From the IMG/VR virus record IMGVR_UViG_3300042922_001473: a DNA stretch of 64,000 nucleotides, one strand, 5' to 3'. Below, piece by piece: positions 4,965-49,049 of this stretch. The notes under the pieces were generated by a model. It saw only the letters and a program-made list of their open reading frames with translations. It ran no database searches and was not told the origin of the DNA. Within the stretch, counting starts at the first letter, position 1; every line of letters starts with the position of its first letter. Made by a program: the position numbers and the translations under genes. This DNA is from a virus. Its lineage: Duplodnaviria; Caudoviricetes.

Positions 4965-4993
4965 TTGACTATTGTCAATGAAAACTGTATAAT
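4965..4993 (+). promoter_or_regulatory. Sigma-A promoter with palindromic operator TTGACTATTGTCAA on the -35
   Basis: TTGACT(4965)-17 bp-TATAAT(4988). Confidence 0.85.
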
Positions 4994-5032
4994 AAAATTA
5001 AACTAAAATTAAAAATAGGAGGTTAAGTCAAA

Positions 5033-5518
5033 ATGTTTTTAAATTACCAAAACTTCATTACAGATACATTATATAACATTTTTCATCCAAACTGCAACTC
5101 ATTTGCTGATTATATACAAGTAGTATTTAGTGGAATGTTAGTTATTATTTCGGGTTTAGTAGTAATCGCAATTATAGCAGGAATTTTAATATTGCCATTT
5201 ATTGTATATAAAAAATGTGTTAAAAATATAGAAGTACAAATAAATGAAACTTATATTAGATATAGAAAGGATTATGAGGGAGACTCAAAAGATATTGAAG
5301 CACTACAATCAAAACAAGAAAAATTAGAAAATGAAAAGTTAAAATATATTATATTAGTAATTTTGCTTTCTATTGTAATTTATATTCCAATGATTCTTCC
5401 AATATTTATGATGATAATTGATTTTTTAGGGTTACTATACTTTTCTACCTTGATTGTAATTTTATTATTAATAGGATTTATTATTTTTGATATGTGGTTT
5501 CGTAGTAACTATTATTAA
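5033..5518 (+). CDS. Membrane protein, paralogue of 10182-10787
   Basis: Three hydrophobic stretches; shares N-terminus MF..YQ.FITDTL..I..P..NSF.DY.QVV and KYI...IV.YIP..LP. Confidence 0.8.
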   Translation: MFLNYQNFITDTLYNIFHPNCNSFADYIQVVFSGMLVIISGLVVIAIIAGILILPFIVYKKCVKNIEVQINETYIRYRKDYEGDSKDIEALQSKQEKLENEKLKYIILVILLSIVIYIPMILPIFMMIIDFLGLLYFSTLIVILLLIGFIIFDMWFRSNYY

Positions 5519-5643
5519 AGATAAAAAATTTCACACACATAATTTCTAAAAGTAATAGTAGGTATGGCATTGATGTTTTAATATTATATAACAAATAAAA
5601 AGATGCAAACATTGTCAATTATTTGTATCTTTTTATTTGCTAC

Positions 5644-6126
5644 TTAATAATTTTTATAGATAAATTTTAATAAATGTGGTGGAATGTTCGAATTATATAA
5701 TATTTCATTGTTATTATTTTCAAACCACTCATTACATTCACAAATTTCATCGTTGCAATCACATACAATATTTTCTAATGAATCTAAGTACCATTCACAT
5801 TGTTCTGTAATCTGGTTAGACGTTATTGAATTATTTCGAATTTCAGTAAGTAGAAAGTCAACTACGCCAAACTCTGCACTAAAAAGTTTTGTTTTATCAA
5901 GGTCTTTAGAATCTACTTCTATAATTGTATCTTCTTACTACAACCGTAACTGTGTGAAAAAAAGAAAACGCACTTACTTCTATCCATCTTATTTTTATGT
6001 TTTACATTCATAAGTAAATCATCTAATAAAACAGTATCTTTTCTTTTATTTTTTTGAATCAACATAAAGTCCTTCACTTTTTATTCTTTCGATATTATTA
6101 ATATTTATAATATGATATAGTTTCAT
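5644..6126 (-). pseudogene. Frameshifted ADP-ribosyltransferase-like (H-type) gene
   Basis: GGAGG-ATG 6126; pieces in different frames: MKLYHI / NIERIKSEGL / DRSKCVFFF / IIEVDSKDLDKTKLFSA...NEILYNSNIPPHLLKF*. Confidence 0.55.
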
Positions 6127-6383
6127 TTTCCCTCCAATGAATCAAAATGTTCTTTATATAAAAATACATACTTATTTCCTAAAACACCTGGTATATTAAT
6201 TTTTTATATTATATTTTCAATTTTTAAAAGGTATTTTATAATATTTAATTTATCTGTAGAAAAACTTCAAATTATATAATTCACTTCGTTATCTATAATA
6301 TATTATTGCAAAAAACAAGGTACAATTTTTGTAAATTTAAAAAGGCAAGTAAAAAATTATTTATATAGTGGAGGATTATTATA

Positions 6384-45939: not shown

Positions 45940-46122
45940 ATGTTTGATGAATCAAAGTGTAATAATTGTTGGTGCAAAAATTGTAATTATGACTATGGAT
46001 TAGATGTAAGTGAATTCTCTTGCTTATGTAAAAACAGAGCAGATAGAGGTTGTTTTAGATGCAAAGAGAATAATGTAAATAATGTTGTAAATCAGAATAA
46101 AAACTGTGTACAGCGAGCTTAA
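45940..46122 (+). CDS. Small Cys-rich protein
   Basis: GGAGG then ATG 45940; CNNCWCKNC..CLC..CFRC..C. Confidence 0.6.
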   Translation: MFDESKCNNCWCKNCNYDYGLDVSEFSCLCKNRADRGCFRCKENNVNNVVNQNKNCVQRA

Positions 46123-46159
46123 AAAAAGAGAAAGTGAAAATTCACCTTCTCTTTTTTTG

Positions 46160-48856
46160 TTATGCAGTTTGTTTTACATAATCAATTCTTTGTATGCCTT
46201 CAAGTTCTGTAACAAAACCCATACAACTATTTACTTTTCTTCCTCCACCATACGAGCTATAAGTTATATATAATTCACTTTTAGCCCTGGTGATTGAAAC
46301 GAATAATAATCTTCTTTCTTCGTCACGTTCTTTATCTCTAATTTGAGTTCCTGTATACTTGTATTTATTTATTGTATTAATTACAACATCAAATTCTTTA
46401 CCTTTTGAGCTATGAGCTGTCGTTAATACGACTGCTTTAAATTTAATATTGTTTACTTCTAAAGTTTTTTCATCTTTGTATAAAGCAAACTTTATCAAAT
46501 AGTTTATCAAACTATCGAATGATTTAAACTCTTTATCTCTTAATACCTTTGTGAACTCAGCCACAGCTTTATCTTTAGTAGCAATTGAAGCAATTGTTTT
46601 AAAGAAAAACTCTATCTTTTGTGCATCGGTAGTTAAAGCATAAAAAGTTTTTACGAAATTGTTTCTGTAATGACCTACAAAATCTTTTAATTCTAATGAA
46701 CTCATTTCTTTTATCGTATCATTTTTAAACATTAATAAATATTCTAAAAGATTAAGTTCTAACTCTGGATTATTTAAGAAGTTTGCAAAGGACAATATTA
46801 CTTGAATATTTTTATTATTAAGCAACAATTGTGTTACATCCATAACAGCAGGAATGTTTTTAGCGTCAAATATGTTTTTTATCTCAAGAAGTTCCTTCTT
46901 AGTTCTTGCAATTATTGCAATCTCTTCTGCTTTAACCCCTTGGTCTAATTTTTCTTTAACAATTTCAGCTATATTTTCATATTCTTCCTTCTTTTCAAAG
47001 TAATGAATCAACTTAGGAAGTTTTCCTGATGCTTTTCTACTTATCAAATCCTTATCTACTCTGTTTTTATTCTTTTGATTTAGCAAGTTTGCAGTTCTTA
47101 TGATTTCAGGTGTTGACCTAAAATTATCTACAAGGTTTATATCTTTAGCACTTTTGAAAAACTCATTAAAGTTTAATATAAACTCTTGAGACACATTTCT
47201 AAAACTAAATATTGATTGACTATCATCTCCAACTACCATTAAAGATTGAAATTTTCCTTGCTTTACAAGTAAGGTTATAATCTGCAACTGATTGTAGTCG
47301 GTATCCTGAAATTCATCTACCATTATATGCTCAACAGTGTATTTGCGTAAAGTTTCAGGGTAAGCTCTAAATATCTGCAAAGTATAGTTGATTTGGTCTT
47401 GATATTGAAGAAGTGAATTTTCTATCAGGTCTTCATTAAATATTTGATATAAATTCCAAACACCTTCAGCTACTATAACTGTACAATTAACATCCTTAGC
47501 AAATTCTTCGTAATTTAAGTAGTTATTAGCTTTGATTTTGTCAAAGTAACTATCTACAAGAACTACTGCACCTTTTGCATATGGTAAATTCATTAAAGGA
47601 TTTTTATAATCAAGTCCCTGTATTTTGGGATAACTTTCAAGCAATTGGAAAATAATATCATATCTTTCTACCTTTTCAGCTAATAGTGGTTTACTTTCAA
47701 ATCCAAGTTTCTCAAACTCTTCACTTATTATTCTCTCACCAAAACTATTGAATGTAAATATATTCATTTTATCCACATCAATATGCTCTAATTTAAAGTG
47801 TTTTAACCAATAAGAAACTTTTTCTTTGATTTCAACTGCACCCTTATTTGAGAATGTAATAAGTAAAATATTTTCAGGTTTTGTTCCTTTTTTAAATAAA
47901 TTTACAACTCTTAATGCCAATACAGATGTCTTCCCTGCACCAGCTCCTGCATTAATTCTTACGATACCACAATCAAACTGAACTGCTTTTTTCTGGTCTT
48001 CTGTAAGATGAATTGTTCCGTTAGGTGACTTTTCAATAACTTCTACAATATCTAATTCTGTTTCTGTCTTTTCTTCATAATAACAAATTTTTGAAAAACT
48101 ACATTTTTCGCAATTAGATTCATCACAAGTTTTTTCTGAATTAAAAGAAAGCTTTCTATTAAGTATTTCAAATATTTTGTTATCAATATACTTAATATAC
48201 GCTTCGTCTTCGTCAACTTCATTAACAAAATGATAATTAATTATGTTATAACCTTTTTTAAATTCAAATAGCTCTTGAAACTCCCTTGAATTATCTCCTT
48301 TACTCTGTAAGTGATAATAACTTGCTGTTACAGGTTTGTCTTTATATAATTCTTCACCTAATTTTTGAAGCATGTAAAGCTCAATGCTATATTTGGGATT
48401 AGTTTCATACTTTTGTCCTCTGTAAGATAATTTAGGTTCACCTTTTTTATATTTAACCACTTCAATTGTTCCTTTGTTTTCAAATATAATATCTGCTGAT
48501 ACTGTAATTTCATTTCCTTGATATTGTACAGCTTTTGTAATATTTTTCATTAAAACCTTTCGATTAAATAATTGTTCATATTCAAAATATCTTACAAGTT
48601 GTTTAGTCAAAAGTTCAATTTCAGCAATTTTTTCGTCTTTAGAAACGAACATGCTTTCATCAACAAGCTTTTCTAATGAAGCAGGTATTGTAGTTAAATC
48701 ACCATTTTTAATATCAAAATCTCTAATAAAATTTTTAATTACTATAGAGAGTTCATAATGTTTGTTTTTAAGAGATTTTAAATTTACGCCTTCTAAAAAA
48801 CCTCTAACTTTACATTTATCAATGCTCACTATATCCTTTAATTTTGCTTGTACCAT
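46160..48856 (-). CDS. UvrD-type helicase with N-terminal degenerate PD-(D/E)xK-like domain
   Basis: AGAGAGKT, DEFQD, VGDDSQSIF, NFRS, HSSKGKEF, EERRLLFVSITRA; N-terminal ADII..EVVKYKKG and CDESNCEKCSFSKIC. Confidence 0.9.
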   Translation of the reverse strand: MVQAKLKDIVSIDKCKVRGFLEGVNLKSLKNKHYELSIVIKNFIRDFDIKNGDLTTIPASLEKLVDESMFVSKDEKIAEIELLTKQLVRYFEYEQLFNRKVLMKNITKAVQYQGNEITVSADIIFENKGTIEVVKYKKGEPKLSYRGQKYETNPKYSIELYMLQKLGEELYKDKPVTASYYHLQSKGDNSREFQELFEFKKGYNIINYHFVNEVDEDEAYIKYIDNKIFEILNRKLSFNSEKTCDESNCEKCSFSKICYYEEKTETELDIVEVIEKSPNGTIHLTEDQKKAVQFDCGIVRINAGAGAGKTSVLALRVVNLFKKGTKPENILLITFSNKGAVEIKEKVSYWLKHFKLEHIDVDKMNIFTFNSFGERIISEEFEKLGFESKPLLAEKVERYDIIFQLLESYPKIQGLDYKNPLMNLPYAKGAVVLVDSYFDKIKANNYLNYEEFAKDVNCTVIVAEGVWNLYQIFNEDLIENSLLQYQDQINYTLQIFRAYPETLRKYTVEHIMVDEFQDTDYNQLQIITLLVKQGKFQSLMVVGDDSQSIFSFRNVSQEFILNFNEFFKSAKDINLVDNFRSTPEIIRTANLLNQKNKNRVDKDLISRKASGKLPKLIHYFEKKEEYENIAEIVKEKLDQGVKAEEIAIIARTKKELLEIKNIFDAKNIPAVMDVTQLLLNNKNIQVILSFANFLNNPELELNLLEYLLMFKNDTIKEMSSLELKDFVGHYRNNFVKTFYALTTDAQKIEFFFKTIASIATKDKAVAEFTKVLRDKEFKSFDSLINYLIKFALYKDEKTLEVNNIKFKAVVLTTAHSSKGKEFDVVINTINKYKYTGTQIRDKERDEERRLLFVSITRAKSELYITYSSYGGGRKVNSCMGFVTELEGIQRIDYVKQTA

Positions 48857-49020
48857 TTTGGCACTTCCTTTCACTATGTATTTTTTAAAAATCCTGTTTT
48901 ATATAAAATCTTTATATTATACTTTAAATAGCCTTCAATTATAAATAATAAGAATTATATCTGTTCAGTTATATTTGTATTAATCTGTCATTTTTTATTT
49001 ATATGGACTATAGTGTTTAC

Positions 49021-49049
49021 ATTATAACCGTATTGTTGTTTATAGTCAA
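49021..49049 (-). promoter_or_regulatory. Sigma-A promoter with operator TTGACTATAAACAA
   Basis: TTGACT(49049)-17 bp-TATAAT(49026); extra GACTATAGT core at ~49006. Confidence 0.8.

Follow-up and report, generated by a model that had tools for sequence, protein, structure and literature searches.

A palindrome embedded in the -35 box of dispersed promoters, a probable operator of a family of giant Firmicute plasmids

The plasmids of the IncP-1 (RK2/RP4; KorA, KorB, and TrbA), IncW (R388), and IncN (pKM101) groups encode repressors that act on palindromic operators at many strong promoters. These circuits keep the plasmid quiet, and its genes are expressed in a burst once the repressor is missing. 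On a smaller scale, the controller proteins of restriction-modification (R-M) systems (C.AhdI, C.BclI, and C.Esp1396I) are small Xre-type dimers reading GACT...AGTC palindromes with a TATA-like centre. Their C-boxes are tandem pairs of GACT-N3-AGTC found in their own R-M operon only, where they overlap the -35 or the +1 of the methyltransferase promoter. The C1 operators of phage P1 and the gp71 "stoperators" of mycobacteriophage L5 are further examples of one repressor serving many scattered sites, both in promoters and in transcribed regions. Here, we describe a 14-bp palindrome, TTGAC-WWWW-GTCAA, which recurs at promoters of a 64-kb stretch of DNA (the window) from the IMG/VR record IMGVR_UViG_3300042922_001473. 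It is probably the operator of a dimeric plasmid-encoded repressor common to a family of AT-rich Firmicute plasmids of 0.36-0.74 Mb.

Similar to the logic of IncP KorA/KorB, one palindromic operator is present at many promoters of one replicon and, in the relatives checked, is missing from the host chromosome. An analogy to such plasmid-wide repressor circuits had already been drawn in an earlier reading made from the sequence alone (the sequence-only reading), and is apt. The system deviates from the KorA/KorB circuits in its operator sequence, in the number of sites (tens to more than 100, as against 7-12), in the identity of the operator half-site with the -35 box itself, and in its occurrence in Firmicutes on plasmids of 0.4-0.7 Mb. 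No ParB-family KorB homologue is linked to this motif, and the repressor is putative. The C-box circuits share with the window a palindrome at the methyltransferase promoter, placed at +1 in the window. However, the core is one base shorter here (GACT-AT-AGTC or GAC-N4-GTC), it is single rather than tandem and is spread over the plasmid, and no C gene lies beside the window methyltransferase gene.

The window was scanned with TTGACTATAGTCAA, allowing 0-3 mismatches. At two mismatches or fewer, nine matches were obtained, as compared to a mean of 0.61 and a maximum of 3 in 100 dinucleotide-preserving shuffles. The signal was lost at three mismatches (14 vs 8), and TTGAC-N4-GTCAA with an unconstrained centre was not enriched (32 vs 30). 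As both of these scans were at noise level, the true motif is the whole 14-mer, TTGAC-(T/A)AT(A/T)-GTCAA. Its four central bases are restricted to A/T, as would be expected for the non-contacted, narrow-groove middle of a dimer site, and the flanks tend to R...Y, which extends the symmetry to 16 bp. Besides TTGAC, half-sites of a TTGTT/AACAA flavour were observed, e.g., TTGACTATAAACAA, the type present at window position 49036. All nine positions listed in the sequence-only reading were reproduced (Table 1). In 7/7 of the promoter-borne sites, the half-site was found to form the -35 box, exactly 17 bp from TATAAT or TACAAT, as had been proposed; the strand-proper half-site is TTGACT (TTGATT at 44312), and the operator spans -35 to -22 with its centre near -28.5. 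The eighth site, at 31746, does lie between the -10 and the ribosome-binding site of the methyltransferase gene, and the site at 12091 is indeed a weaker copy in poor promoter surroundings. The targets assigned earlier, i.e., two UvrD-type helicases, the methyltransferase, and five proteins for which membrane or signal segments are predicted, were likewise confirmed. Inspection by eye of the opposite strand at 4965, the one site so viewed, showed no -10 box at the right distance for a divergent promoter from the other half-site. The sites at 4965 and 10117 belong to one duplicated unit of promoter, leader, and membrane-protein gene, and hence the nine sites represent eight independent ones; the flanks of the remaining sites are mutually unrelated.

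A megablast search of 20-kb pieces of the window against plasmids and phages gave no match, nor did an exact 41-mer of the window in collections of viral, genome, and metagenome contigs. An orthologue of the 904-amino-acid (aa) helicase of the window, sharing 46% identity, was found on a circular Aneurinibacillus sp. plasmid of 721,710 bp (NZ_CP116888.1), which also encodes orthologues of the 1121-aa HATPase protein (63% identity), the methyltransferase (64%), the Macro-domain protein (57%), the 651-aa UvrD (56%), and RadA (55%). With the reversed pattern serving as control in all relatives, this plasmid was found to harbor 26 sites at one mismatch or fewer against 0 for the control; its 3, 23, and 70 sites at 0, 1, and 2 mismatches compare with 0, 0.4, and 20.8 in simulated sequence. 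The Clostridium perfringens plasmid pJFP838A (NZ_CP013615.1; 404 kb, 24.7% G+C), described as a "unique mega-plasmid" with 70% hypothetical genes (PMC4747519), showed 79 sites against 1 reversed at one mismatch, and 121 sites with a W-only centre, 91 of which have a good -10 at exactly 17 bp. Further members of the family were identified through a VirB4-like ATPase common to these two plasmids. Exact matches to the motif and to the reversed control numbered 99 and 0 on the Jeotgalibacillus malaysiensis plasmid (603 kb), 19 and 0 on contig 1 of Bacillus sp. M6-12 (739 kb), 17 and 1 on BTB_502p of B. thuringiensis Bt407 (502 kb), 8 and 0 on Paenibacillus polymyxa pSC2 (510 kb), 7 and 0 on the P. 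thiaminolyticus plasmid (360 kb), and 2 and 0 on the Brevibacillus halotolerans plasmid (414 kb), the last rising to 26 and 2 at one mismatch. A 127-kb Geobacillus plasmid, the 301-kb plasmid of C. difficile BI1, C. botulinum pCB111, and Butyrivibrio pCY360 were negative or nearly so; the C. difficile plasmid has a handful of TTGACTATAAACAA promoters. The TTGTT/AACAA flavour occurs commonly on the plasmids of Aneurinibacillus, Bacillus sp. M6-12, and C. difficile.

The backbone of the family comprises a relaxase-like protein, a Tad pilus, and parts of a type IV secretion system (T4SS; VirB4-like ATPase, PrgI, and pilin), together with ClpX, a sigma factor, RecA, RecJ, RecD2, and two Xre-type proteins. 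Matches to the HK97 capsid and TerL ATPase families were absent from five members, and hence the family is treated here as conjugative-type megaplasmids and not as phages; this negative covers two Pfam families, and nothing firm follows from it for the parts of the element outside the window. A strict promoter pattern matched IMG/VR only in 30 isolated single instances on unrelated contigs, without clusters, and thus gave no evidence for a phage family. The P1 C1 and L5 gp71 sites differ from the present ones in being asymmetric as well as phage-borne. As side observations on this family, the Aneurinibacillus plasmid contains a tandem duplication of ∼20 kb (about 341-361 kb and 354-375 kb) inside its Tad/T4SS backbone, resulting in two copies of the sigma factor gene and of the gene of one Xre-type protein (HTH_b, see below). 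A 235-aa protein of the window is conserved at 28-44% identity in 4/4 fully read family plasmids; in three of the four, though not in the window, its gene has the palindrome upstream. Searches of Pfam, PDB, and named clusters gave no match for this protein, which was also considered as a possible binder of the motif.

The conservation of the second half-site was evaluated in promoters picked solely by TTGACN-17-TATAAT (≤1 mismatch in the -10 box), blind to that half-site. GTCAA with one mismatch or fewer was present in 71/87 such promoters of pJFP838A, 24/64 of the Aneurinibacillus plasmid, 29/72 of M6-12 contig 1, and 4/10 of the window, where two more had it with two mismatches and where chance, as estimated from base composition, would give a few per cent. 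The corresponding figure for 400 kb of sampled Aneurinibacillus chromosome was 0/4. The second half-site is therefore far more conserved than in ordinary TTGACN promoters, contrary to the refuting outcome named in the sequence-only reading. The comparison of replicon and host chromosome that it had suggested was run in two relatives. Exact TTGACWWWWGTCAA was found 7 times on the 722-kb Aneurinibacillus plasmid and 0 times on the 4.98-Mb chromosome, and 19 times on the 739-kb contig of Bacillus sp. M6-12, twice on its small contig 24, and 0 times in the other ∼4.5 Mb. Consensus sigma-A-type promoters as such amounted to 9-21 per 100 kb on the plasmids vs 1 per 100 kb in the chromosome sample. 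The chromosome counts and the blind half-site test together indicate that the motif belongs neither to Firmicute promoters in general nor to a regulon of the host.

Of the sites, 86-95% are intergenic. Sites lacking a TAnnnT -10 at 16-18 bp on either strand were 10/121 in pJFP838A, 9/33 in the Aneurinibacillus plasmid, and 30/93 in the M6-12 contig. Many of the sites outside the -35 position lie a few bases 5' of the Shine-Dalgarno (SD) sequence, downstream of the -10 of another promoter; the plasmid sigma-factor gene and a helix-turn-helix (HTH) regulator gene of pJFP838A are examples. The methyltransferase operator is the same 14-mer, TAGACAATAGTCAA, located 7 nt after the -10, in the window, the Aneurinibacillus plasmid, and the M6-12 contig; the -10 of the two relatives is TATACT, and the surrounding bases differ between the elements. 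Similarly, the 651-aa UvrD promoter has retained the motif in all three of these elements (TTGATT..., TTGTTT..., and TTGCCT...-GTCAA), the remaining DNA being unalignable. Pairs of palindromes 28-29 bp apart recur. A third half-site following the -10 had been suggested by eye in the Aneurinibacillus plasmid; at the exact offset it was seen in only 3/33 Aneurinibacillus and 8/54 M6-12 promoters and once in the window (29785), with no recurrent offset in pJFP838A promoters, and these counts ruled it out as a common feature. The motif marks roughly 12-35% of upstream regions in the relatives, including those of recA, recJ, the plasmid sigma factor, and regulators, a share that does not agree with the small dispersed programme envisaged in the sequence-only reading.

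Table 1. Motif copies, associated promoters and genes, and neighbouring features of the window (positions are those of the 64-kb window; -35 and -10 refer to the promoter elements).
Feature	Position	Strand	Sequence	Remarks
Operator	4965..4978	+	TTGACTATTGTCAA	Left half is the -35; -10 TATAAT 4988-4993
Membrane-protein gene	5033-5518	+		Target of the 4965 promoter
Gene	5684-6013	+		Probably also a target of the 4965 promoter
1121-aa HATPase gene	6384-9749	+		Probably also a target of the 4965 promoter; GHKL/HATPase_c_3 domain
Paralogous membrane-protein units	4925-5518 and 10077-10787			Operator-promoter and leader in each; N-terminus MF.xYQxFITDT shared
Operator	10117..10130	+	TTGACTATAGACAA	Left half is the -35; -10 TACAAT 10140-10145
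Membrane-protein gene	10182-10787	+		Target of the 10117 promoter; paralogous duplicate of the 4965 unit
Weak copy	12091..12104		TTGTCTATAGTCAC	2 mismatches; no convincing -10; status uncertain
Gene of 235-aa protein	12760-13467	-		No palindrome upstream in the window
Operator	18173..18186	-	TTGACTATTGTCTA	-10 TATAAT 18158-18163
39-codon open reading frame	18005-18124	-		First gene after the 18173 operator-promoter; start 18124; one hydrophobic helix
Operator	20297..20310	-	TTGACTATTGTCAA	-10 TATAAT 20282-20287
Gene of 193-aa signal/anchor protein	19659-20240	-		Target of the 20297 promoter
Operator	29785..29798	-	TTGACTATATACAA	-10 TACAAT 29770-29775, directly followed by extra half-site TGACTGTA
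Gene of 276-aa membrane protein	28914-29744	-		Target of the 29785 promoter
Next gene	28329-28889	-		Target of the 29785 promoter
Operator	31746..31759	-	TAGACAATAGTCAA	7 nt past the -10 (31767-31772) of TTGAAG(31790-31795)-17-TATAAT; SD directly after
N6/N4 methyltransferase gene	about 31722 to 30639	-		Target at 31746; probable start near 31722
Methyltransferase open frame	30639-31745	-		Open from the palindrome on; first ATG/GTG/TTG at 31574
Operator	44312..44325	-	TTGATTATAGTCAA	-10 TATAAT 44297-44302
UvrD/PcrA-type helicase gene	42305-44260	-		Target of the 44312 promoter
Operator, TTGTT flavour	49036..49049	-	TTGACTATAAACAA	-10 TATAAT 49021-49026
Partial second copy	48990-49020	-	ACTATAGTCCA	Just 3' of the -10 of the 49036 promoter, in the leader of the 904-aa helicase
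Nuclease-domain UvrD-type helicase gene	46160-48874	-		904 aa; target of the 49036 promoter
Macro plus NADAR protein gene	56838-58855	-		Adjoins RlaP-type nucleotidyltransferase

Several further features of the window genes were noted. The two paralogous membrane proteins (161 and 201 aa), each with its own operator-promoter and leader, flank the 1121-aa HATPase gene, and an operator-promoter follows the stop codon of the latter in both the window and the Aneurinibacillus plasmid. The membrane-peptide open reading frame after the 18173 promoter is shorter than the usual gene-calling length. The partial second copy at the 49036 promoter resembles the +1 operators of related plasmids. In the methyltransferase frame, the catalytic DPPY lies upstream of the first ATG/GTG/TTG, and hence the start must be a non-canonical codon, probably an ATT ∼9 nt after the SD AAAGGAG; the Aneurinibacillus orthologue has a GTG start at the equivalent place. 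For the protein with Macro and NADAR domains (DarT1-associated antitoxin-like), 57% identity was seen in two relatives. Comparison of ten target and candidate window proteins with PHROGs gave almost no matches.

As candidates for the binder, the sequence-only reading had put forward the HTH genes at 24674 and 27111. The former gave one faint HTH_Crp_2 match (E = 0.009) and the latter faint SpoIIID and HTH matches, and no orthologue of either was found in the three fully read plasmids that use the motif. Both are unlikely; a motif shared by Clostridium and Bacillus should have a reader of equally wide conservation. The binder would lie outside the window; two conserved backbone proteins of the Xre family, Xre_a and HTH_b, are the strongest candidates. 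Xre_a (205-221 aa; at 466002-466655 on BTB_502p) adjoins ydjM-like, recJ, and recA genes, has an unremarkable recognition helix, and was found in every motif-positive plasmid tested and not in the C. difficile plasmid. The HTH domain of HTH_b, which is not encoded in the window, matched Rco of pLS20 (PDB 8bny) with E = 1.3e-14, and its profile also matched C.BclI and C.AhdI (E about 1e-9 and 3e-8). Rco of Bacillus subtilis pLS20, which loops DNA in tetrameric form, recognizes direct CAGTGAAA repeats at a single pair of promoters (PMC9986798). HTH_b is likened to Rco, the master repressor of a conjugative plasmid, by its Xre type and by its location at the head of the Tad/T4SS operon in the relatives. 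It is larger than Rco and a candidate reader only, and the site considered here is a plasmid-wide 14-bp palindrome, whereas the direct repeats read by Rco are confined to the Pc/Pr pair.

Other types of reader were also considered. A Crp/Fnr binder was rejected as not conserved, PF13545 being over the cut-off on the Aneurinibacillus plasmid and not on pJFP838A, and an ImmA/IrrE-type antirepressor protease was not conserved across the family. The Firmicute LexA/Cheo box, CGAAC-N4-GTTCG, has the same architecture as TTGAC-WWWW-GTCAA but differs in two of the four core bases per half-site, in agreement with the statement of the sequence-only reading that the motif is not a LexA box. A LexA-type binder combines a winged HTH with an S24 self-cleaving peptidase domain; no such peptidase domain was detected on Xre_a in Pfam, and the sole S24/S26 match in the core was a signal peptidase. 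Thirty proteins were common to all three fully read motif-positive plasmids and missing from two motif-negative relatives, among them a Dam-like D12 methyltransferase, a ParB/GmrSD_N-like protein, and several of no assigned function. The plasmid sigma factor (NZ_CP013615.1, 44546-45429, and orthologues) contains regions 2 and 4, and its gene is followed by clpX; upstream of the gene, TTGAC-N14-GTCAA occurs in two relatives and an operator abuts the SD in pJFP838A. Its region 4.2, which contains MSQANVSKMEK, is presumably of the SigF/G/E/K (sporulation-sigma) type, unlike that of sigma-A, and the factor is therefore unlikely to read TTGACA.

From the symmetric, A/T-centred site on consensus promoters, the copies at +1 or in leaders, and the restriction to plasmids, we infer that a protein binds the palindrome and that it represses instead of activating. 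In the proposed mechanism, the left half-site at most sites is the consensus -35, 17 bp from a near-consensus -10, and a dimer bound near -28.5 would deny sigma-A region 4 access to a promoter that is otherwise strong. At the minority of sites between the -10 and the ribosome-binding site, the bound protein would block initiation or escape. No activator would be needed, owing to the near-consensus -35 and -10 at optimal spacing. As one half-site equals the -35 consensus, a good promoter would enter the regulon on gaining GTCAA four bases downstream, which could explain the growth of the regulon to tens or hundreds of promoters. Thus, of the sequence-only reading, the single dimeric repressor is supported by the half-site conservation, the copies outside the -35 position, and the plasmid restriction; its two candidate genes and its small programme were not supported. 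Certain points weigh against a repressor. It is represented by candidate proteins only, of which Xre_a is also encoded by the motif-negative Geobacillus plasmid and HTH_b is present in 4/4 fully read plasmids, including the motif-poor one of C. difficile. Most sites have one fixed position in the promoter, as a promoter-class element would also give. On the plus strand, the symmetric palindrome at 31746 would also supply a -35, with TATAAA or TATAAG 17 bp away, and one operator may thus serve two face-to-face promoters. Finally, no RNA sequencing run was listed as containing window DNA; the runs that contain it are DNA runs of soil metagenomes, soil being the apparent source.

The position relative to the -10, fixed in most sites, speaks for the opposite reading, in which the palindrome is a positive element and a dimeric plasmid activator, or a factor acting with the plasmid sigma, recruits or redirects RNA polymerase at a plasmid-specific class of promoters, in the manner of the T4 MotA box (-30). 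The plasmid-specific occurrence of the motif and the sigma-70-family factor conserved in the family fit this as well. However, promoters with TTGACW and TATAAT at 17 bp are already self-sufficient, the plasmid sigma factor is an improbable reader of TTGACA if our comparison of its region 4.2 is correct, and a tenth to a third of the sites in the relatives lie downstream of a -10 or have none, which makes no sense for an activator. Positive control is hence unlikely. A bolder reading, which we consider speculative and unlikely to hold in full, extends repression to much of each 0.4-0.7 Mb plasmid as one switchable unit, silenced by one, possibly non-canonical, plasmid factor and released at once after transfer or on a signal. 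The factor could then be a protein outside the annotated HTH set, or a system sensitive to methylation that involves the conserved Dam-like methyltransferase; instead of a simple dimer, two paralogous binders or cooperative assemblies of higher order would account for the TTGAC and TTGTT flavours and for the palindromes paired at 29 bp.

A reader at the level of DNA, with no transcription factor, would make the palindrome the target or switch of a plasmid methyltransferase, or a loading or structuring site of a ParB-like or nucleoid protein. The Dam-like D12 methyltransferase and the ParB/GmrSD_N-like protein do track the motif, and the window methyltransferase gene has it at +1, but this co-occurrence rests on only five plasmids (three positive and two negative), and the base-exact phasing to the -10 in most sites points to transcription; such a reader is quite improbable. 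Still less probable is a conserved host protein through which the plasmids are plugged into a host regulon. It would account for the same motif in hosts from two classes of Firmicutes, and a CRP/FNR-family box of identical consensus has been described, the HcpR-type wyTTGACnnnnGTCAArw (PMC1274295), whose half-sites and spacing are those found here. Yet the flanks are R...Y here and Y...R in the HcpR box, and the centre at -28.5 is not a position of CRP/FNR activation, which lies near -41.5 or -61.5. No Crp/Fnr protein is conserved across the family, the one plasmid-borne Crp-family protein being missing from pJFP838A and the 24674 match being faint and without orthologues. Moreover, a host regulon is contradicted by the 0 exact sites in the ∼5 Mb Aneurinibacillus chromosome and in ∼4.5 Mb of M6-12 outside the plasmid contigs. 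An origin by chance or base composition in AT-rich intergenic regions, or by copying of a single promoter cassette as at 4965 and 10117, is refuted by the shuffles and Markov simulations (0.4-0.6 vs 9-23 observed), the reversed-pattern controls (0-2), the unrelated flanks of the other sites, and the conservation of the motif at orthologous promoters.

The repressor reading thus joins a familiar control logic to an operator, a plasmid family, and a scale that are new. In the literature searched, the spelled-out motif was found only as HcpR and Anr boxes and not in a megaplasmid context, and no paper was found that deals with the promoters of pJFP838A, BTB_502p, or pSC2 or describes the motif there. 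The giant plasmids of B. thuringiensis, P. polymyxa, C. perfringens, and soil Firmicutes have been described as novel or unique, with most of their genes being without known function (PMC3569317, PMC4747519). Laboratory strains, namely Bt407 Cry- and P. polymyxa SC2, are among the carriers of the motif. As the motif is shared by giant plasmids of Clostridium, Bacillus, and relatives, it is not special to the element of the window. A cis-element that marks a large share of the promoters offers a computational handle on the transcription units of such megaplasmids, and the 14-mer could serve as bait for finding their master regulator. Removal of the binder, or mutation of GTCAA, would provide a simple genetic switch for silent plasmid cargo. 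The system further illustrates how a regulon may grow by changes of two to five bases, since its operator half-site is a -35 consensus in itself.

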